Source of the DNA: Candidatus Omnitrophota bacterium
GTDB lineage: Bacteria > Omnitrophota > Gorgyraeia > 2-02-FULL-51-18 > JAGOUK01
Direction of reading: 5' to 3'
Length of the DNA stretch: 64,000 nucleotides
Assembly: GCA_047639455.1 (NCBI GenBank)
Contig: JBLINS010000002.1
Location: 226 to 64,225, forward strand
A program made the translations under genes and the position numbers. This document shows, piece after piece, positions 10,156 through 41,081 of the stretch. The notes beneath the pieces were generated by a model that saw only the letters and a program-made list of their open reading frames with translations, ran no database searches and was not told the origin of the DNA. Numbering within the stretch: position 1 is the first letter of the stretch; each line of letters begins with the position of its first letter.

Positions 10156-10256
10156 GCGCGTCATCATGAGCTGCGCGGAGCAAGCAGCGTAATGATCTCC
10201 CAGAGAAACCTTTTGCTGTGGGATTGTCGCGCCTGCTGCGCGGCTCACAATGACTC
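10156..10256. repeat. Dispersed short repeat (family copy 1) with an internal imperfect inverted repeat
   Basis: The core GTCATCATGAGCTGCGCGGAGCAAGCAGCGTAATGATC ... CTGCTGCGCGGCTCA closely resembles 17655-17760 and is related to the elements at 22171-22260, 33575-33630 and 59495-59630. Confidence 0.5.
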
Positions 10257-33048: not shown

Positions 33049-33072
33049 GTTATAAATTCAAAAATAAAAAAA

Positions 33073-33104
33073 CGCCGTAGAGACTCTCTACGGCGTTTTT
33101 TTTA
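33073..33104 (+). terminator. Rho-independent terminator downstream of the HU gene
   Basis: 10-bp perfect stem CGCCGTAGAG / CTCTACGGCG with a 3-nt loop, followed by TTTTTTTTT. An A-run precedes it, so it may work in both directions. Confidence 0.8.
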
Positions 33105-33264: not shown

Positions 33265-33411
33265 TTACATCACCAATGCGTCAACAACCGCAGCGCTTAT
33301 TGGTATTACTGGGCTATTTGCCCCATGATTACCCCCACCCATAGCAAAAGCCATGGCCGTGATCATTAATGCCATTGTAAGCGTGAGTCCGACAGTGAGT
33401 GAGCGTTTCAT
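33265..33411 (-). CDS. Small (48 aa) hydrophobic peptide ORF with a strong RBS, not in the ORF track
   Basis: Minus-strand ATG preceded by AGGAGG at 7-nt spacing. It encodes MKRSLTVGLTLTMALMITAMAFAMGGGNHGANSPVIPISAAVVDALVM. Confidence 0.3.
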   Translation of the reverse strand: MKRSLTVGLTLTMALMITAMAFAMGGGNHGANSPVIPISAAVVDALVM

Positions 33412-33574: not shown

Positions 33575-33630
33575 TTAACGTCATTGCGAGAAGCGCGCAG
33601 CAAGCGACGTGGCAATCTAGGGTTATGCTG
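33575..33630. repeat. Dispersed short repeat (family copy) upstream of the giant ORF
   Basis: ACGTCATTGCGAGAAGCGCGCAGCAAGCGACGTGGCAATCTAGGG, near-identical to 22187-22225. Confidence 0.5.
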
Positions 33631-33740: not shown

Positions 33741-36700
33741 TTGGGTATACTTCCTTATATGTTTATATATACGAATTCTATATATACAGTATCCCGAATA
33801 ATTAAATCTATTAGTCTATTAATCATCTTTTTGATGACTGTGGAACAATTATGCTTTGCTGCTCCCGTGGGCCAATTAGGGTCATCCTTGACACAATTAA
33901 TAGGGTCTCAGAACAAGCCTCAAACGCTCCTTTCTTTAGTGGATTTGGTTCAAAACCCAGTTAACATTAAGCCCACCTTTAAATACGCCCATGTTCAGAA
34001 TATTCATCAAGGTACGAATGGAAAATTAATCATTCATATTCAGGATGCGCATGCAAACTTTTCTGGTCAAATGAATTTGGCCAAAACTATAGATGACTTA
34101 ATGACCAAATATGGAATTAAATTGGTATTGGCAGAAGGTGGCGAAGGAGACGCTTCACTTTCAACTTTACGATCAAAAATGACCACAAGAGATATGGATG
34201 CAGCAGCTAATCGTCTACTTATGGATGGCATGATAGCTGGTCATGAATATTTGGATTTGACATCCAAACACAAAATGAAATTAGTCGGCATAGAAAATAA
34301 AGAATTGTATTTGAGCAATTTAAAGGCCTATAGCGAATTAACCCAAACAAGAAAAAAAATCACGGCTCACTTGCACAAAATAAAAGTGGCCATTCAACGC
34401 TTGAAGAACAAACTTTATTCCAAAGATATATTGGAGTTAGAGTCCATAGAGGAATTCAATAAACAATTTGAGGCTTTGCTCCAATTAAATGATGGGCGCA
34501 TTCAATTAAGCACATACCCACAAATGCAATTATTAAAGAATCTTAAATCAGAAGAAAAGCTAATTGACTTCGATAGACTTAATCTCGAAAGAGAAGCTCT
34601 TTTTGACCTATTGTCCGCAAAAGGTCAAAGCGAAGCTTTGAGGAAATTAGTCCAAGACATGAGGCAAGGCCAGTCTTCTCAAATCACACAGTCCTTTAAT
34701 ATGCGCAAGCTATTTGAATTAGCTCATCAGAATCAAATCCAAATGCAAAGATTCTACAATCTCCAAAAATACAATGATTATCTAAAAGAATTTGTCCAAT
34801 TGGATTTTAATCATCTGTTGGAAGAAGTCGATGAATTTCAAACCCTGCTCTACCAGAACTTATTCCAAGGAGAGAAAGACCCATCTATCTTGAGGGCAAT
34901 AGACGTGTATAAAGATCTTTTAGATAAAGCCACCCAAATTCAAATGACGTCACGAGAGTTTCAAACCTTTATGGCGAATGAAGAGAAATTCGACGAAGAA
35001 GCCTGGCAAGCCTTTTTGAACCAAAAGCTATTAGACTTAGAATATTACGACAATCTCATCCCTTTTAAAGAAGAACTCACCGAATTCAAGCAAAAACTAA
35101 AGAATTTTTACCGACTAGTGAACCAAAGGGATGAAGCCTTTATCCAAAATATAAGCAAAGTCCTAAACCAAGAAGATGAACAAGCGGCCTTCTTAGTAAC
35201 TGGAGGTTACCATACCCAAAACCTCACCAAGCTTGTGCAAGCAGAGGGCTACTCATTCATCACCCTAAGCCCCAAAGTCACTTCAGAAACAAATCACCAA
35301 CAATACGAATCTCTTCTACTCAAAGAATTGAACCAATCAATCTCTAGTGGCGCTCAAACAAAGTCACCCATGCAAGTCATAACCACAACCCTAGTCCAAA
35401 CCCTATCCCGCATGTCTCAAGTTCGCATCCCCGAATACGCTAGAAGATTCTCTAATGAAAGATTTGGTCAAGTTGCTCAAATGATTGTGGACCCACGAAG
35501 TGCTTCCAGGATGACTAATTATCCAAACAAGCATATATTTAATGATTACGCTTCTATGATTCAGTGGCTTAAGATTGAGTTGGGAATGGACGATGAGCAA
35601 ATTGGCGTTGTGATCGTAGATGGTCCTGCTGCTTCTGGAAAGAAAGCTGTAGCGAAACACTTGTCGGATAATGGTGAGGTTGCTCATTTCAAAATGGATG
35701 GTTTTGCGTCTCAAGCTATGAGAAACGCACTGGCTCTGGCATTAGGTTTCTTTATAGGCCCTCTCTTATTGGGTCGTTTTTTGGATCGATTCATATTGAG
35801 GTTTTTTCATGACCATGAGGCTATCTTAGATCTTAAGCAACAAATAGCACATGCTATAAAACAAGTGGAAGAATCGAATGCCGAATCCGTAGAGGTTTCT
35901 CCACAGTATGGATTCAAAAATCTGGATCCAGAGTCTGCTATCAAAGCAATGCAGGATTCAAAGCAAACTGTAAAGAAGAGCTCCACAATTATTGTTTCTG
36001 GTCTTAGGGGAAAAGAGCTTCTTGGGACGGGCATGCCTCAGCAGCAATCCATATTGGTCACAACCGATTGGAACACCACATACAATCGTTACCAGGATCG
36101 ACAGACACAAGGAAATTCAAAACAATTTTGGCCATGGGCTTTAATACGTCAATTCACTGCTAGTTTTAAGTGGGAAGAGTCTTTCTTTGCCCGACGTCAA
36201 AACGAATATGATTTTGTAATCGACTCAACCAACATCGACCGCCCTACCGTGATTGATCAAAGAAACCTAACGACTGACTCAACGAGAATGAGCCCTAACT
36301 CAGTACCATTTGAAGGTAGAGCGCGAATGTCGAATCCGAACAATGATTCTTTACCTTTACCAGCTGGTGTTGATGGATATATTGTTGATCCTGGTGCAGA
36401 GGGGTCAGGCCGTGACTTGCCGATAAGTAAAAGTGGAGCGCGGATGACGAGTTCTTCCACTGAGCATGTAGCTGAAGAGGTGCCCGACCCTTTGGCTACA
36501 GGCGAGGATGGCGCAAGCTTAGCGGAAAAAAAGAAAGTTACGGGCAAGCGACCTGGCAGGGTTAGGCAAGTAGGTCACGTACCACTTGAATCTAAGAATT
36601 TTAATTTGATTATGGAATTTATTAAGAGATATCGCAAGATTGATTCCGACACCATTGAATATTCTACTTATTTAAGGGGAATCAATCCTCTCTTAGAAAC

Positions 36701-39700
36701 ATTACGACAAGAACCCAGGGCTCGAAGAAAGGAAACCAGAGCTCTCTTAGCCTTAACAGAAGGTTTTATCCAAAAGAAAAGCCATATTCAACCCACGCTA
36801 GATGAAATCATGGCCGTTGCCGTAGCTTCTTTTTCTATACCTTTAAATTCGCACCTCTTGGTGATTTATGCTTTAACATTAAAAATGCTTGATATGACAG
36901 GCAAAGATTTACTGAATGCCCAACAAATCAGTCAATTTGAAAAAGAATTACACGCATTAGTAGATCTTTATTCTTCCAAACATCCTCAGGAGAAAAATAT
37001 TAACTTAGCAACAATCATCAGACAAATTCTCTCAATACAAATGAAGGATAGTAAATCAAACTTATTATCACAGTCGCAATGGCACTTCTCTTCTGCCCTC
37101 CAAAGCGAGTTAGCCAAAATTGAATTACAAGAAATGGGTCAAGCATTACGACACGACCCTTCTGAATCTATTGGGCGAATTCAAACCTCTCATCACGCTT
37201 TAAAATTGGGAGCTCAAAATAATCAAATTGCCAATGTCGTTGATTGGACTCATGGATTAATGAGTCAGGATCATCGGGTTCGCAGAATGATTCGATCTCA
37301 TGAAGCATCCGAAATTCCTGCTAAATCCTCAATACAAAATGCGCTTCAACCAACAGTTAATGCAGTTAATGATAATTTGGACACATTGATTTTATGGACT
37401 CTAGAAGCCCTTAAAAAAGATGACTCAAATAATCAAACACGTGATAAGAAAAAACCCTTAATCGCTCAAACTGGTGTATCTCGATATGGACTGTCCTGCA
37501 AATCTGGCTCCGCTTGCAATCAAGCTGCGGCTCGGTGGAATGATGAACACACCCTCGATGACATTCTCGAATCAAGGGAATTGTTAGAAGAATTTAGTAT
37601 GCATATTGGTCAAACAAATCAAAGCCACGCCTCATTTACGCTTAACTACGGTCAAATATACGAACATACATTGCAACGCTTAATATACTTAAGAGCTGCG
37701 GACTTTCCATTCGATGCCTCGGATTCCGATGCCGAAAGCATTTCTGCGAATCTGGATCAGATCAAGTCGTTATTGCCGAAAGAATATTTCAAGATTTATA
37801 AACTCATCGTTTCAGGTACTGCAAGCAATTCACTAAAGGCGATCCAATTAATGGAGGCTAGTCAGTGGCTGAACGAATCATTGTTAGCAGAACTGTATCA
37901 ATATATTTCCAGAGATTTATTAAGCAAGGTTTTTGTTCACCAAGATGAAGCTTCTATTGAGGAAATAAAAATAATTTCTAAAGACAATAATGATGGAATC
38001 ATAGTGAACGTTAATCCAAACGGTTTGGCCGAAGTCTTCATTGACAATAGACAATATTTTGATAATCCTCGGATGATCACGATACCATTGCCCGATCACG
38101 CTGGTTCACAAGTGAGACTAAGAGCTCAGCGCGATTCAAGATCATTCTTATGGCTACACGCATTTTCTGTGAGTGAGGACTTATTCTTAGGCCAATTCTT
38201 TTACGACTCGGAAAGGCGTGAAATGTTACATGAAAAAAAACACTTTAAGTCCAGAGTCCTCAAAGGTCATGAGGGAGTTCCTGATATGCCCGACTCGGTA
38301 CCCGTAACTATGCAGAAAAATGAAATGGGTAATTATTTTGCATTTAAATATGAGGACAAAACCTATAACCTTTCACGCCCCTATGAGGCTCGTTATAAAG
38401 GTATACGCGATGATGCTGATCTGCAAACAATTCATATACGAATCATCCGTCAGCAAAACAAGGACTATGTTTATGGCTTCTTAAATCCGGACGACGAATT
38501 AGCCTCGGATGCTTTTGCCAAATGGTTATGGGTACCCAGCAAGGACGGTGGCCGTCATCGATTTGAAGCTGAATACTTTTATGTTCCTGGAACTAAATTA
38601 TGGTTTTACCATTTACTCCGCAATAATATCACTACCTCTAGAATCTACCAGGCTAGGATTGATTTAGATGACAAAGGACAAGCTATTATTCACAAAGAAT
38701 TAAAATTACGCTTAGGGGATATGTTTAAAGGTGGGGGCCAGAATATGCCTTCAGAAGCCCTTATGACAAACACATTAGCTGACCCATCGCGCGTGGATAT
38801 TTATGATGCACCTGAATCTGAGGACAAAAAAGAAAGAGGCAGTTTTGATCCGCGTCAAATGAGATTCATTGCTAGTAAATATTATTCTAAACCTCGCAGC
38901 ATGTTCCAGCGGGATTGGCAAATCGTAACGCAAAGACATAATGAATTTCTATCAGACTCCAATCTCATAGTTCCTAACCCTGACCCCGTTGTGGTTAGAA
39001 TGCCCATTGGTGTTGATACTAGAGCCAAAACCGGTCACCCCAAGCATATTATTGATACACCCACAGGCAAGCCCATTACATTCGAAAAAACCGAACATGT
39101 TGATGAGCTTGTTATGATTCGCTTTAATCAATTCAAAATGAATGGAAGAATACAGCGTGGCATTGAGCTCATCGCGCTGTCAGAAGACTTTGTACCCAAG
39201 TTTTTGATAAGACGCGGTTATTATCACGCACCGGGTGATGAATTTAAATGGCAAAGCCCTCGCAGGAGAAAATCTTATACCATTGAAGAAAGATATCAAA
39301 TTGAAGAAGTCCTGATTCATACAGGTTATCTAGGATCCTTCGTTCATCATATGACAATCAAAGCGGATTATCTGACTCGCGAATTTGTTCAAATGGTGAA
39401 TAATGAATTGCAATTAGCTCAAATAGATGTAGAAAAAGTACTTGATGAATACAATCATGTCTTAACTGAATTGGACAAAATTAAGGCATTCCTACTCAAG
39501 CAAAATTGGGAATCTTCAGAAATGGATAAACACTTTGGCCGAATCAGTGATGTCATTAGCCCCGTTTATCGTCAAGCCATCGATCAAGTTCAAAGGAATC
39601 AGCAAACTTATCCCATTGGAACACGTGTCAGGTTTAGGCATCGCAAAGCGACTGTGGAGGGTTATCAATCAATAGAGGGTGGAGTAATTCTTATTACCCT

Positions 39701-41081
39701 AAAAATGGATGACATGAAAAGAAAGCCAAATCTTGAGGACCGCCTCGAAACCTATTCCCTAAGCTCCATAGTCGAGGAATTGCAATTTCTTCCCATTCAA
39801 CAGCACCCAACCCAATCAGACACCACCACTCACCCGCCCTCGAATGATGACCACGCAAGATTAGCCGCACCGCAGTTAACTTCATCTGAGGATTCAGGCC
39901 CCAACTTGGCTACATTTGATAGCAGAGCAACAAGATTAGCTGGTTCTAATAGCATTTCTAAGAAATCAATTGTTGGAGAGGATATCTTTAAGCAAATATT
40001 ATTAGCTGTGGATTTGGATTTACCGGTGAGGGGGGCTTTGGTGCCGGAATTGAAGTCTTTGTTTGTGCGGTGGTTTGGCCGGGCACGTGTAGAAGAGGAT
40101 GTTTATGCGATTGGTCATTCTGGTAATCGCTTTTCTCGGGTGAGGATATATTCTTTGGGAGCTAAAGGCTACCATGTATTGGATGAGGTGACGGGTGAGC
40201 GTCTTAATATTTCTTTGGAAGAAATAGCGGCTTATAGATTGGATTTGAAGAAGAATGGTTCACAACCAGAGTCAATTATGCAAAGACTAGGAGATGCCGA
40301 CTTTAGTTATAATGCCTTGGAATTGAAGTCTAGTATTAAACGGTCTCTAGCTCTTCTTAGACAAGGCATTGGGGTTGTGGCCGCATTACCTAAAAAGCTA
40401 GTGCGTTTTAAGATGGTGACTGATTTTGCGAGCATTAAATCTGCTATTGGGCAGAATATGGAATATTTGTATGTGATGAGTGAGGATAGGCGTTTTAGTC
40501 AAAGAGCGTCACATGTCTTTATTGGAACCGTTGAGGACCAATTGGCATTGGATGCGTATAGAGAGAACTTGGATGGAGATGCGGACTTCTTAGGCTTTGT
40601 GAATCAAATTCAAATTGTGGGTTTGGCGGATATTCTACGTAATTATGATGTCAATTCTAGTCCTCGAATTGTCTTTGCGAGCACACCCAAAAGTTTTGAA
40701 CGGGCTTATGCTTCGAATAAGGACTTTAGACGCTTAGTGGACGTGGATTTGGTTTCAATAGCGCCTACCAGCGCGGCAGCGAATAATGAGCTATTGGATA
40801 TGCTGAATTTATTGAATACAGCTGATATATTGGCTCATTGGGCACAATTATCACAAGAAGAGCAAGCTGAGCATCAAGTGCATATTGGACGCTATCTGAA
40901 ACGTGCTTATCAAATTGATGGGTCTAGAGAGCATATTGATTCCCTAAGCTATGCTTCAGGCTTTGAGGAAGACACACACTGGTATCAACGGATTAGCTTG
41001 CCACCCTTAGGGCGCTATGTGGATGCTATATTTCATAGCTTTATTCCCACGATTCGCAATGCTGTATTGGCCTCAGCTTAG
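33741..41081 (+). CDS. Giant protein (2446 aa) with an N-terminal signal/TM segment, a module shared with the first giant ORF, and a Walker-A-like motif
   Basis: Uninterrupted 7.3-kb ORF with a hydrophobic N-terminus (IIKSISLLIIFLMTVEQLCFAAPVG). aa ~440-530 are homologous to the start of ORF 3..7697 (FLVTGGYHTQNL...FITLSPKVTSETNHQQYESLLL). GPAASGKK at nt 35622-35645. Confidence 0.8.
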   Translation: MGILPYMFIYTNSIYTVSRIIKSISLLIIFLMTVEQLCFAAPVGQLGSSLTQLIGSQNKPQTLLSLVDLVQNPVNIKPTFKYAHVQNIHQGTNGKLIIHIQDAHANFSGQMNLAKTIDDLMTKYGIKLVLAEGGEGDASLSTLRSKMTTRDMDAAANRLLMDGMIAGHEYLDLTSKHKMKLVGIENKELYLSNLKAYSELTQTRKKITAHLHKIKVAIQRLKNKLYSKDILELESIEEFNKQFEALLQLNDGRIQLSTYPQMQLLKNLKSEEKLIDFDRLNLEREALFDLLSAKGQSEALRKLVQDMRQGQSSQITQSFNMRKLFELAHQNQIQMQRFYNLQKYNDYLKEFVQLDFNHLLEEVDEFQTLLYQNLFQGEKDPSILRAIDVYKDLLDKATQIQMTSREFQTFMANEEKFDEEAWQAFLNQKLLDLEYYDNLIPFKEELTEFKQKLKNFYRLVNQRDEAFIQNISKVLNQEDEQAAFLVTGGYHTQNLTKLVQAEGYSFITLSPKVTSETNHQQYESLLLKELNQSISSGAQTKSPMQVITTTLVQTLSRMSQVRIPEYARRFSNERFGQVAQMIVDPRSASRMTNYPNKHIFNDYASMIQWLKIELGMDDEQIGVVIVDGPAASGKKAVAKHLSDNGEVAHFKMDGFASQAMRNALALALGFFIGPLLLGRFLDRFILRFFHDHEAILDLKQQIAHAIKQVEESNAESVEVSPQYGFKNLDPESAIKAMQDSKQTVKKSSTIIVSGLRGKELLGTGMPQQQSILVTTDWNTTYNRYQDRQTQGNSKQFWPWALIRQFTASFKWEESFFARRQNEYDFVIDSTNIDRPTVIDQRNLTTDSTRMSPNSVPFEGRARMSNPNNDSLPLPAGVDGYIVDPGAEGSGRDLPISKSGARMTSSSTEHVAEEVPDPLATGEDGASLAEKKKVTGKRPGRVRQVGHVPLESKNFNLIMEFIKRYRKIDSDTIEYSTYLRGINPLLETLRQEPRARRKETRALLALTEGFIQKKSHIQPTLDEIMAVAVASFSIPLNSHLLVIYALTLKMLDMTGKDLLNAQQISQFEKELHALVDLYSSKHPQEKNINLATIIRQILSIQMKDSKSNLLSQSQWHFSSALQSELAKIELQEMGQALRHDPSESIGRIQTSHHALKLGAQNNQIANVVDWTHGLMSQDHRVRRMIRSHEASEIPAKSSIQNALQPTVNAVNDNLDTLILWTLEALKKDDSNNQTRDKKKPLIAQTGVSRYGLSCKSGSACNQAAARWNDEHTLDDILESRELLEEFSMHIGQTNQSHASFTLNYGQIYEHTLQRLIYLRAADFPFDASDSDAESISANLDQIKSLLPKEYFKIYKLIVSGTASNSLKAIQLMEASQWLNESLLAELYQYISRDLLSKVFVHQDEASIEEIKIISKDNNDGIIVNVNPNGLAEVFIDNRQYFDNPRMITIPLPDHAGSQVRLRAQRDSRSFLWLHAFSVSEDLFLGQFFYDSERREMLHEKKHFKSRVLKGHEGVPDMPDSVPVTMQKNEMGNYFAFKYEDKTYNLSRPYEARYKGIRDDADLQTIHIRIIRQQNKDYVYGFLNPDDELASDAFAKWLWVPSKDGGRHRFEAEYFYVPGTKLWFYHLLRNNITTSRIYQARIDLDDKGQAIIHKELKLRLGDMFKGGGQNMPSEALMTNTLADPSRVDIYDAPESEDKKERGSFDPRQMRFIASKYYSKPRSMFQRDWQIVTQRHNEFLSDSNLIVPNPDPVVVRMPIGVDTRAKTGHPKHIIDTPTGKPITFEKTEHVDELVMIRFNQFKMNGRIQRGIELIALSEDFVPKFLIRRGYYHAPGDEFKWQSPRRRKSYTIEERYQIEEVLIHTGYLGSFVHHMTIKADYLTREFVQMVNNELQLAQIDVEKVLDEYNHVLTELDKIKAFLLKQNWESSEMDKHFGRISDVISPVYRQAIDQVQRNQQTYPIGTRVRFRHRKATVEGYQSIEGGVILITLKMDDMKRKPNLEDRLETYSLSSIVEELQFLPIQQHPTQSDTTTHPPSNDDHARLAAPQLTSSEDSGPNLATFDSRATRLAGSNSISKKSIVGEDIFKQILLAVDLDLPVRGALVPELKSLFVRWFGRARVEEDVYAIGHSGNRFSRVRIYSLGAKGYHVLDEVTGERLNISLEEIAAYRLDLKKNGSQPESIMQRLGDADFSYNALELKSSIKRSLALLRQGIGVVAALPKKLVRFKMVTDFASIKSAIGQNMEYLYVMSEDRRFSQRASHVFIGTVEDQLALDAYRENLDGDADFLGFVNQIQIVGLADILRNYDVNSSPRIVFASTPKSFERAYASNKDFRRLVDVDLVSIAPTSAAANNELLDMLNLLNTADILAHWAQLSQEEQAEHQVHIGRYLKRAYQIDGSREHIDSLSYASGFEEDTHWYQRISLPPLGRYVDAIFHSFIPTIRNAVLASA

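Follow-up and report, generated by a model that had tools for sequence, protein, structure and literature searches.

Giant open reading frame (ORF) 2, at nucleotides 33741 to 41081 of a 64,000-nucleotide stretch of DNA (the window) from a Candidatus Omnitrophota bacterium (GenBank assembly GCA_047639455.1, contig JBLINS010000002.1, positions 226 to 64,225 of the forward strand), appears to encode an exported modular polyprotein, made up of an N-terminal leader, a hydrolase-like head, swappable modules separated by linkers and a C-terminal tail, and possibly processed at the linkers. We consider this reading somewhat better than an even bet. Judged by its sequence, the protein comes from a very large family that has no entry in Pfam or NCBIfam and occurs in multiple copies, mostly in Omnitrophota. 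These nanobacteria are ubiquitous, uncultured and dependent on hosts, and the puzzle posed by their huge multi-domain proteins is well recognised. An earlier note on the same DNA had proposed that ORF 2 is a secreted or membrane-anchored protein with a kinase-like Walker A motif. The features of ORF 2, together with giant ORF 1 of the same window, are as follows.

33741..41081, plus strand: giant ORF 2, a single uninterrupted ORF of 2446 codons counted from TTG
33741, plus strand: TTG, the mechanical ORF start
33759..33866, plus strand: probable true start ATG (M7) and Sec-type signal peptide MFIYTNSIYTVSRIIKSISLLIIFLMTVEQLCFA/AP, from homologue N-termini (here and below the slash marks the predicted or known cut)
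33867..35375, plus strand: family-defining N-terminal module (the head), residues ~43-545, from homologue matches, invariant columns and AlphaFold2
~34308-35075, plus strand: all-helical insertion of ~250 amino acids splitting the core of the head, residues ~190-445, from AlphaFold2
35406-35417, plus strand: a further SRMS, residues 556-559, conserved in the closest relatives
35505..35516, plus strand: linker motif 1, S-R-M-T, residues 589-592, just behind the N-terminal module
35517..36281, plus strand: P-loop module, residues 593-847 (~255 amino acids), with linker motifs on both sides (589 and 848)
35622-35645, plus strand: GPAASGKK, residues 628-635
36282..36449, plus strand: low-complexity linker with three motifs, TRMS at 848, ARMS at 861 and GARMT at 900
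36450..39854, plus strand: central cargo region, residues 904-2038, with no recognisable domain
39855..39941, plus strand: linker with two motifs, H-ARLA at 2039 and A-TRLA at 2064, disordered in AlphaFold2 (predicted local distance difference test, pLDDT, <50)
39942..40988, plus strand: C-terminal module, residues ~2068-2416, a small beta-rich part and then a Rossmann-like alpha/beta domain
40989..41081, plus strand: family-wide C-terminal tail ...RISLPPLGRYVDAIFHSFIPTIRNAVLASA, then the stop codon
3..7697, plus strand: giant ORF 1, a second family member, its 5′ end cut by the window edge, sharing the end of the head

Relatives of ORF 2 recovered from a word-indexed database (n = 86), all of 1.4-4.2 thousand amino acids, match only its first 18-26%. 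Their labels are nearly all Omnitrophota, with a few from Auribacterota, Elusimicrobia, Desulfosarcina and Bacillota. An exhaustive search with a profile of the head, which neither Pfam nor NCBIfam covers, returned 10,272 clusters (50% identity) at E ≤ 1e-3, of which 7,232 also pass E ≤ 1e-30. In the best 150 of the 10,272 clusters the head match starts within the first ~50 residues, apart from one start at residue 283, in a match with two matched stretches; the longest protein among the head-profile matches listed has 7,364 amino acids. Single genomes carry at least 4-8 copies. What follows the head in the relatives matches, in Pfam, methyltransferases, protein kinases, NUDIX, HD, FHA, M23, DnaJ, GGDEF, cNMP-binding, GNAT, HATPase_c, receiver, PPDK, PGK, PGM, GAPDH, glycogen phosphorylase or synthase, HEAT and SecA.

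The module that the earlier note had seen in both giants of the window was confirmed, with 38% identity across 143 amino acids (E = 2e-24). ORF 1 carries a NUDIX domain (residues 1735-1825, E = 3e-10) and a weak HATPase_c match, together with three linker motifs and a tail-like terminus, ...IKYVQRST. The closest relative of ORF 2, P0002 (locus L082, 14200-19725, contig JBGCVJ010057894.1), lies in a context that differs from that of ORF 2. Directly after it stands another giant gene, of 3279 amino acids and reaching the edge of the locus examined, with CofD and phosphoglucomutase domains; family members can thus stand in tandem.

ORF 2 itself exists where the earlier note had placed it, open without a break on the plus strand for 2446 codons. 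An identical protein (P0001, 2415 amino acids, ‘hypothetical protein’) has been deposited from a Candidatus Omnitrophota metagenome-assembled genome. An artefactual or fused ORF was considered and rejected, since the same architecture occurs in thousands of independent assemblies and a second assembly also carries a protein identical to ORF 2. The public annotation of P0001 begins at M32 (ATG 33834), inside the hydrophobic core, and so cuts the leader. The true start of ORF 2 probably lies upstream of M32, most likely at ATG 33759 (M7), which would give a protein of ~2440 amino acids; this ATG is favoured because the hydrophobic leader is kept in homologues (162 of the 175 complete N-termini). 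Shine-Dalgarno use is patchy in the window and does not distinguish the candidate starts of ORF 2. The N-termini of P0004, P0017, P0018, P0023, P0031 and P0032 also look clipped by gene callers, and mis-called start codons may be systematic in the public annotation of the family. Between 34000 and 40000, ORF 2 has an AT skew of +0.09 to +0.14, as against about 0 to 0.06 elsewhere; its GC skew is slightly negative and that of its flanks positive.

The leader is conserved across the family. A strongly hydrophobic 11-mer stands ahead of the first conserved domain in the 162 relatives mentioned above, preceded by Lys or Arg in 158 of them and followed by a small-x-small site in 160. The family consensus reads L-L-L-x-x-[ATS]-F-x-x-Q-[ED]-[LVI]-[AS]-x-A/A-P, with Ala in 89% at position -1 and Ala or Ser at -3. 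From M7, ORF 2 reads MFIYTNSIYTVSRIIK-SISLLIIFLMTV-EQLCFA/AP, in which an n-region ending ...SRIIK, an h-region (SISLLIIFLMTV, a hydrophobic core of ~12 residues) and a polar c-region (EQLCFA/AP) can be told apart. The layout expected for Sec and signal peptidase I, a positively charged n-region, a hydrophobic h-region of 10-15 residues and a polar c-region whose -3 and -1 positions are small, is therefore found in the sequence. The signal peptide of E. coli OmpA likewise ends AQA/AP. The ORF 2 leader is probably a Sec signal peptide that signal peptidase I removes, and the protein is probably exported by Sec; export of the chain behind the leader is predicted because the charge distribution obeys the positive-inside rule. 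A lipoprotein reading was rejected, there being no lipobox and the Cys not being conserved. The N-terminal hydrophobic stretch described in the earlier note is thus present, and the family-conserved leader (Lys or Arg, hydrophobic core, Gln-Glu/Asp, A-x-A/A-P) supports its description of the protein as secreted or membrane-anchored. A start further downstream, with loss of the signal peptide, had been named there as the result that would speak against this; such a start is contradicted by the leader with its A-x-A/A-P site, since these are conserved family-wide.

The head was modelled with AlphaFold2 from a 29-sequence alignment (pLDDT 85, predicted template modelling score 0.79). The model is an alpha/beta core, with strands ending at conserved residues, broken by the all-helical insertion. 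Invariant or near-invariant positions are Q101, D102, H104, Q110, E132, G183, E185, Y190, Y457, R463, G488, G489, H491 and P511. Among these, D102-x-H104, E132 (+28), R463 and H491 (+28) match the acid-x-His/Glu constellation of the TIKI/TraB/Ere/ChaN type, as set out here beside the catalytic positions of RRSP, an effector of MARTX toxins, and of Bcr135 (both taken from PMC6254334).

Acid-x-His: ORF 2, D102-x-H104; RRSP, E3900-x-H3902; Bcr135, H85
Glu: ORF 2, E132 (+28); RRSP, E3930 (+28); Bcr135, E113 (+28)
Arg before the second His: ORF 2, R463; RRSP, R4001; Bcr135, no value in the source
Second His: ORF 2, H491 (+28); RRSP, H4030 (+29); Bcr135, no value in the source

In a Foldseek search of the PDB, the top 50 of 350,000 chains include Bcr135 (3b55, 2rad), EreC (6xcs) and ChaN (2g5g). 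With the helical insert removed, the Pfam families matched by most members were ChaN/Cofac_haem_bdg (E = 0.002), DUF5694 and TraB_PrgY_gumN, all below threshold. PDB sequence searches with head profiles gave coiled-coil noise or an unrelated protein only. As modelled, the head shares with the TIKI, TraB-PrgY-GumN, Ere and ChaN proteins an alpha/beta core with catalytic residues at strand ends, an acid-x-His, a Glu 28 residues on and an Arg ~28 residues ahead of the second His, and its weak fold and profile matches go specifically to the TIKI superfamily. It differs in having Asp for the first Glu and the helical insertion of ~250 amino acids in the core, and in being joined to a signal peptide and to cargo thousands of residues long. 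It is likely that the head has the TIKI/erythromycin-esterase hydrolase fold with an intact predicted active site.

Downstream of the head, the variable modules are separated by a recurring short linker motif, [G][AST]R[LM][AST]. Among all 4-mers of the family's variable regions, over-representation was strongest for GARM (20x), ARMA (16x), GARL (11x) and ARLA (8x), and AR[LM][AST] sites numbered 748 in 198 family proteins, as against 85 in shuffles. Where sites were picked by [AST]R[LM][AST], the unselected -1 position held Gly in 49%, and the flanks were linker-like, rich in Pro, Ser, Ala and Asp. The median spacing of the motifs is 293 amino acids (interquartile range 165-538). In 64% of the motif-bearing proteins with GG[YFH]H located, the first motif comes 60-160 residues past GGYH, right behind the head. 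In three relatives a whole Pfam domain lies between consecutive motifs.

GGDEF, residues 2693-2814: between motifs 2653 and 2897, in one relative
Methyltransferase, residues 2499-2615: between motifs 2441 and 2698, in one relative
Aldose epimerase, residues 731-918: between motifs 613 and 1090, in one relative

The motif sites of ORF 2 (589 SRMT, 848 TRMS, 861 ARMS, 900 GARMT, 2039 ARLA and 2064 TRLA) fall in segments that are disordered or of low pLDDT in AlphaFold, and the Arg column of motif 1 is conserved in 72% of the 86 relatives. An origin of the motif in internal Shine-Dalgarno sequences with start codons was considered and rejected: Arg is encoded by AGG, AGA, CGA, CGG and CGC, and Leu by the non-start codons TTA and CTA. 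Because the Arg and Leu codons vary between copies, the signal lies at the level of the protein and not of the DNA. A proteome-wide compositional artefact was also rejected, the motif being 9-fold rarer in the 41 other proteins of the window than in ORF 2. A variant, G-[AT]-R-[AV], seems to take the place of GAR[LM]A in some lineages, for example in P0009 (SGTRAT, SGTRAV, AGARVF and PGARVR).

The family also shares its end, a conserved tail of ~30 residues seen in about 74% of members. The C-terminus-anchored consensus of the last ~20 residues is L-x3-L-x2-A-(R)-(L/M)-A-x-[RK]-A-[VI]-x-x-[AS]-A; ORF 2 ends ...IPTIRNAVLASA, and among 199 family ends Ala is found in 146 and [AS][ALVIM] in 147. 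Most family proteins that lack the tail ending are probably truncated by their contigs. The statement of the earlier note that the remaining ~1800 amino acids hold no recognisable motif was thus wrong, given the recurrent linker motif and the family-wide tail. Between the linkers the cargo varies. The central region gave no Pfam match under E = 0.05, and its residues 1387-1864 resemble residues 1826-2288 of P0004 (23% identity, E = 1e-34). The C-terminal module (~350 amino acids) is common only to a subfamily, with 55% identity in P0002 and ~32-35% in P0150, P0004 and P0192; family-wide homology was rejected after iterated hidden Markov model searches gave 5-7 relatives only. Its AlphaFold2 model has a pLDDT of 58, rising to 70-86 in the Rossmann-like core, and gave no significant fold match; a PDB sequence search with the module profile matched GCN4 fusion tags only.

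ORF 2 would, on the polyprotein reading, cross the inner membrane by Sec and act in the envelope or outside, which fits the host-dependent lifestyle reported for Omnitrophota. The linkers may be proteolytic processing or recognition sites at which the string could be divided into separate modules, and the head would be the candidate protease. TIKI1 takes off eight N-terminal residues of Wnt3a, and the Wnt3a sequence SYPIWWSL/AVGP makes this a Leu/Ala bond. The MARTX (multifunctional autoprocessing repeats-in-toxin) cysteine protease cuts after Leu between effector cassettes (PMC5218395). In view of these two analogies, the Leu or Met followed by a small residue in the motif is suggestive. Alternatively, a cut after the small residue before Arg would release modules that end ...G-A, like the native ...S-A terminus. 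An onward export route, for example by the type II secretion systems reported close to Omnitrophota giant genes in the searched part of that literature, is left as an option. In its most specific version, the proposal is that GAR[LM]A marks the long-sought place where Omnitrophota mega-proteins are processed, the members of a phylum-wide family of Sec-exported polyproteins being cut there, possibly at Leu/Ala, by their own TIKI-like head; this we regard as unlikely.

Several points weigh against an exported, processed polyprotein with a hydrolase head. Cleavage at the motif is purely our inference, and the strict motif is missing from 57 of 198 relatives. In the Foldseek search of the head against the PDB no match fell under E = 0.1, the TIKI-superfamily matches having E ≥ 0.7. 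The best Pfam match of the head, to PF04187 (E = 0.002), reached 18.6 bits against a cut-off of 27.7, with PF01963 and PF18950 weaker still, and hhalign of the head against E. coli YbaP (TraB family) returned a probability of 0.3%. Since no sequence or structure match is significant, the head is not filed as a member of the TIKI superfamily. A Kyte-Doolittle scan found two more moderately hydrophobic segments in ORF 2 (663-681 and 1024-1042), which could change its topology, and many cargo domains of the relatives (GGDEF, receiver, PGK, PGM and methyltransferases) need cytoplasmic cofactors and sit awkwardly with export. No secretion or partner gene lies near ORF 2 in the 64-kb window.

The GPAASGKK sequence was found where the earlier note had described it, with Lys where Ser or Thr is usual, in a module that has a beta-strand, then G-x4-G-K, then a helix, as in nucleoside monophosphate (NMP) and nucleoside kinases. 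The bare motif is at chance level: GxxxxGK is expected 0.33 times per shuffle and occurs at least once in 28% of shuffles, and the canonical Walker A, [AG]xxxxGK[ST], is found nowhere in the ORF 2 protein. The motif is lifted above chance by sub-threshold matches to four P-loop-kinase families of Pfam that are colinear along ~190 residues of the module.

Cytidylate_kin, sub-threshold: segment 34-58, profile 2-26, E 0.009
Hydin_ADK, sub-threshold: segment 33-71, profile 2-40, E 0.45
AAA_18, sub-threshold: segment 128-199, profile 41-114, E 0.003
AAA_33, sub-threshold: segment 180-219, profile 102-141, E 0.008

The scores lie below the curated cut-offs (AAA_18, 18.5 bits against 29.4; AAA_33, 16.9 against 27; Cytidylate_kin, 16.2 against 26; NCBIfam cmk, 13.5 against 135). 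Matches of the module in the PDB are weak (KaiC, E = 0.08; cytidine monophosphate (CMP) kinase, E = 1.1), and, when aligned to KaiC, the module lacks the Walker B Asp as well as the catalytic pair of Glu residues. The module differs further from NMP and nucleoside kinases in an insert of ~70 residues with a hydrophobic core, ALALALGFFIGPLLLGRFL (residues 663-681), which is interrupted by Gly and Pro and suggests a buried element rather than a membrane helix. No relative of the module was found among the 198 family proteins, and no close relative in a metagenome scan. Two large-database homologue searches, with the P-loop module and with the central region, came back empty; both are uninformative because the identical deposited protein was itself not returned, and a finding of no homologue in that search is unreliable for internal parts of very long proteins. 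The kinase-like Walker A of the earlier note is thus weakly supported, by the colinear matches (E 0.003-0.45), and undercut by the Lys at the Mg-binding site and the chance level of the bare motif. The region is probably a real but divergent and inactive NMP-kinase-like cargo module, a degenerate or pseudo-kinase, and is best seen as one cargo module and not as the key to the protein; the features that define the gene, namely its family, the TIKI-like head, the linker punctuation and the tail, had escaped the earlier note. That GPAASGKK marks an active nucleotide or nucleoside kinase as the key activity of a secreted protein is very improbable: beyond the colinear matches, the local sequence VDGPAASGKKAVAKHL is much like CMP-kinase N-termini, but the missing Mg-binding Ser/Thr and the sub-threshold scores count against activity, the module is missing even from P0002, and an exported enzyme would be without ATP unless delivered into another cell.

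The main rival to the polyprotein reading is an uncleaved, membrane-tethered ‘beads-on-a-string’ scaffold, in which the leader would be a signal-anchor or later hydrophobic segments would re-thread the chain, the modules would remain covalently joined as a multi-enzyme or regulatory platform at the inner membrane, and GAR[LM]A would be a conserved flexible-linker or docking motif. We judge it possible, though on the doubtful side. The cargo of the relatives, typical cytoplasmic enzymes and signalling domains, would be at home in such a scaffold; extra hydrophobic segments follow the head in many relatives, two of them in ORF 2; the searched text of the 2026 Omnitrophota survey takes most giant proteins as membrane-anchored; and ORF 2 has no protease besides the putative head. 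However, the positive-inside leader and the conserved A-x-A/A-P predict cleavage and export, the second hydrophobic segment is absent from many relatives, and a mere spacer needs no five-residue motif conserved among very divergent paralogues. A substrate of a type I secretion system like the MARTX toxins, with the tail as an uncleaved C-terminal signal and the N-terminal helix as a retention element or anchor, is improbable. Tails of the family end -ASA, -SAA or -RAA after an amphipathic helix, as E. coli HlyA ends ...NSITLTASA (PMC3417381), and conserved ends with variable central cassettes are MARTX-like. The residues LDAVTSIF make up 60% of the last 50 residues as against 54% protein-wide and 66% in HlyA, but this enrichment is below one standard deviation. 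ORF 2 moreover has no repeats-in-toxin (RTX) repeats or C80 protease, the window holds no type I secretion genes, and such substrates normally lack a Sec-type leader, whereas here the leader with A-x-A is the best-conserved short feature.

A surface adhesin or autotransporter could account for the large size and the signal peptide. The earlier note had named a known adhesin or autotransporter-type repeat protein as an outcome that would overturn its proposal; ORF 2 gave no Pfam match of that kind, and neither tandem repeats, adhesin domains nor a beta-barrel were found in it. Its C-terminal domain is modelled as alpha/beta, and the ‘autotransporter’ matches in the PDB were to GCN4 fusion tags only. 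Like the artefactual or fused ORF dealt with above, this alternative is scarcely credible.

Among known systems, the polyprotein reading of ORF 2 has its closest counterparts in the Omnitrophota giants (Nielsen & Lui 2026, ‘multi-enzyme metabolic cluster’; West-Roberts et al. 2023, Archaeovorins). As far as the searched text of these papers goes, the published giants come from the same phylum and commonly have an N-terminal signal peptide, and relatives of ORF 2 share their Pfam set (methyltransferase, HATPase_c, GNAT, PGM, starch synthase, receiver and NUDIX); SecA domains in one relative recall the Archaeovorins. By the same text the published proteins have 10-30 thousand amino acids or more, whereas ORF 2 has 2446 and falls below the 10,000-amino-acid limit of the catalogue; ORF 2 also has no Pfam domain above threshold. 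Omnitrophota giants that combine a signal peptide with a string of unrelated enzymes are already known; the point of interest here is the grammar of the family, of which ORF 2 is an ordinary member. Neither the N-terminal module common to the family, nor its GAR[LM]A punctuation, nor its C-terminal tail is described in the searched text of either paper, a statement that holds for this limited literature only. The same text leaves open whether and where the giants are cleaved, one paper calling the cleavage points unknown. With the MARTX toxins, ORF 2 and its relatives would share the plan of an exported protein of several thousand residues with conserved N- and C-terminal parts and variable central cassettes. 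MARTX linkers are cut after Leu, and the family motif has Leu or Met followed by a small residue, where cleavage would be by analogy. Unlike them, ORF 2 has a Sec-type leader and gave no Pfam or NCBIfam match to RTX repeats or a C80 domain, and the family cargo consists mostly of metabolic and signalling enzymes and not of known toxins.

The head, the punctuation motif at domain boundaries and the tail provide a first testable ‘grammar’ for Omnitrophota giants, and bring to notice a family with over 10,000 clusters for which neither Pfam nor NCBIfam has an entry. The motifs point proteomics to possible neo-termini and split the giants for structure prediction, and the invariant residues of the head are targets for mutation. 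If cleavage at GAR[LM]A is true, cocktails of enzymes and pseudo-enzymes would be released at the surface of the cell or else into the cells of hosts or prey. This would amount to a bacterial secreted ‘polyprotein’ strategy, the giants would be computationally divisible into units, and released modules, if the cut follows the small residue before Arg, would have C-termini like the conserved -[AS]A tail.

The surroundings of ORF 2 are those of a diderm chromosome stretch of housekeeping genes. Upstream lie genes for HU, GDPD, DUF1223 and a FecR-like protein. Downstream, in keeping with the earlier note, come a TPR protein with a signal-peptide-like N-terminus and then a DsbD_TM and thioredoxin protein, past which lie GlmU-like, phosphoribosyl pyrophosphate synthetase and L25 genes. 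Further off in the window are BamA, LpxD, LpxB, an MsbA-like ABC exporter, DnaB and GlnA. The exporter, which adjoins lpxB, is the only one in the window, and the window holds no secretion-system gene, as the earlier note had implied in finding no dedicated secretion partner among the neighbours. A conserved partner gene was looked for in the wider family and rejected: the only recurrent upstream block, nuoA-nuoB-nuoCD, occurs at 15 of 80 loci and is housekeeping synteny. This cluster stands divergent to one paralogue lineage (L001, L005, L009, L012, L013, L020 and others), within the upstream 3 kb, in about 15 genomes.

The intergenic region before ORF 2 has further features. A dispersed repeat, GTCATTG[CT]GAG, is present in the window in 7 copies at ≤1 mismatch, as against 0.8 expected (positions 10244, 14046, 18694, 22185, 33580, 40671 and 47799), and at least the copy at 33580 is intergenic. 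The repeat upstream of ORF 2 looks like a repetitive extragenic palindromic (REP)-like intergenic element, and at ≤3 mismatches the window has no second copy of the longer, 39-nucleotide element at 33579-33617. At 33265-33411, on the minus strand and divergent to ORF 2, lies an ORF of 48 amino acids whose sequence, MKRSLTVGLTLTMALMITAMAFA..., resembles a signal peptide and whose Shine-Dalgarno sequence, AGGAGG, is strong; gene calling on the second assembly (L081) also includes it. At 33066-33102, after the HU gene, a perfect 17-bp stem with T and A runs on both sides resembles a bidirectional intrinsic terminator; because of this predicted hairpin upstream, ORF 2 would have its own promoter within the 640-bp gap.

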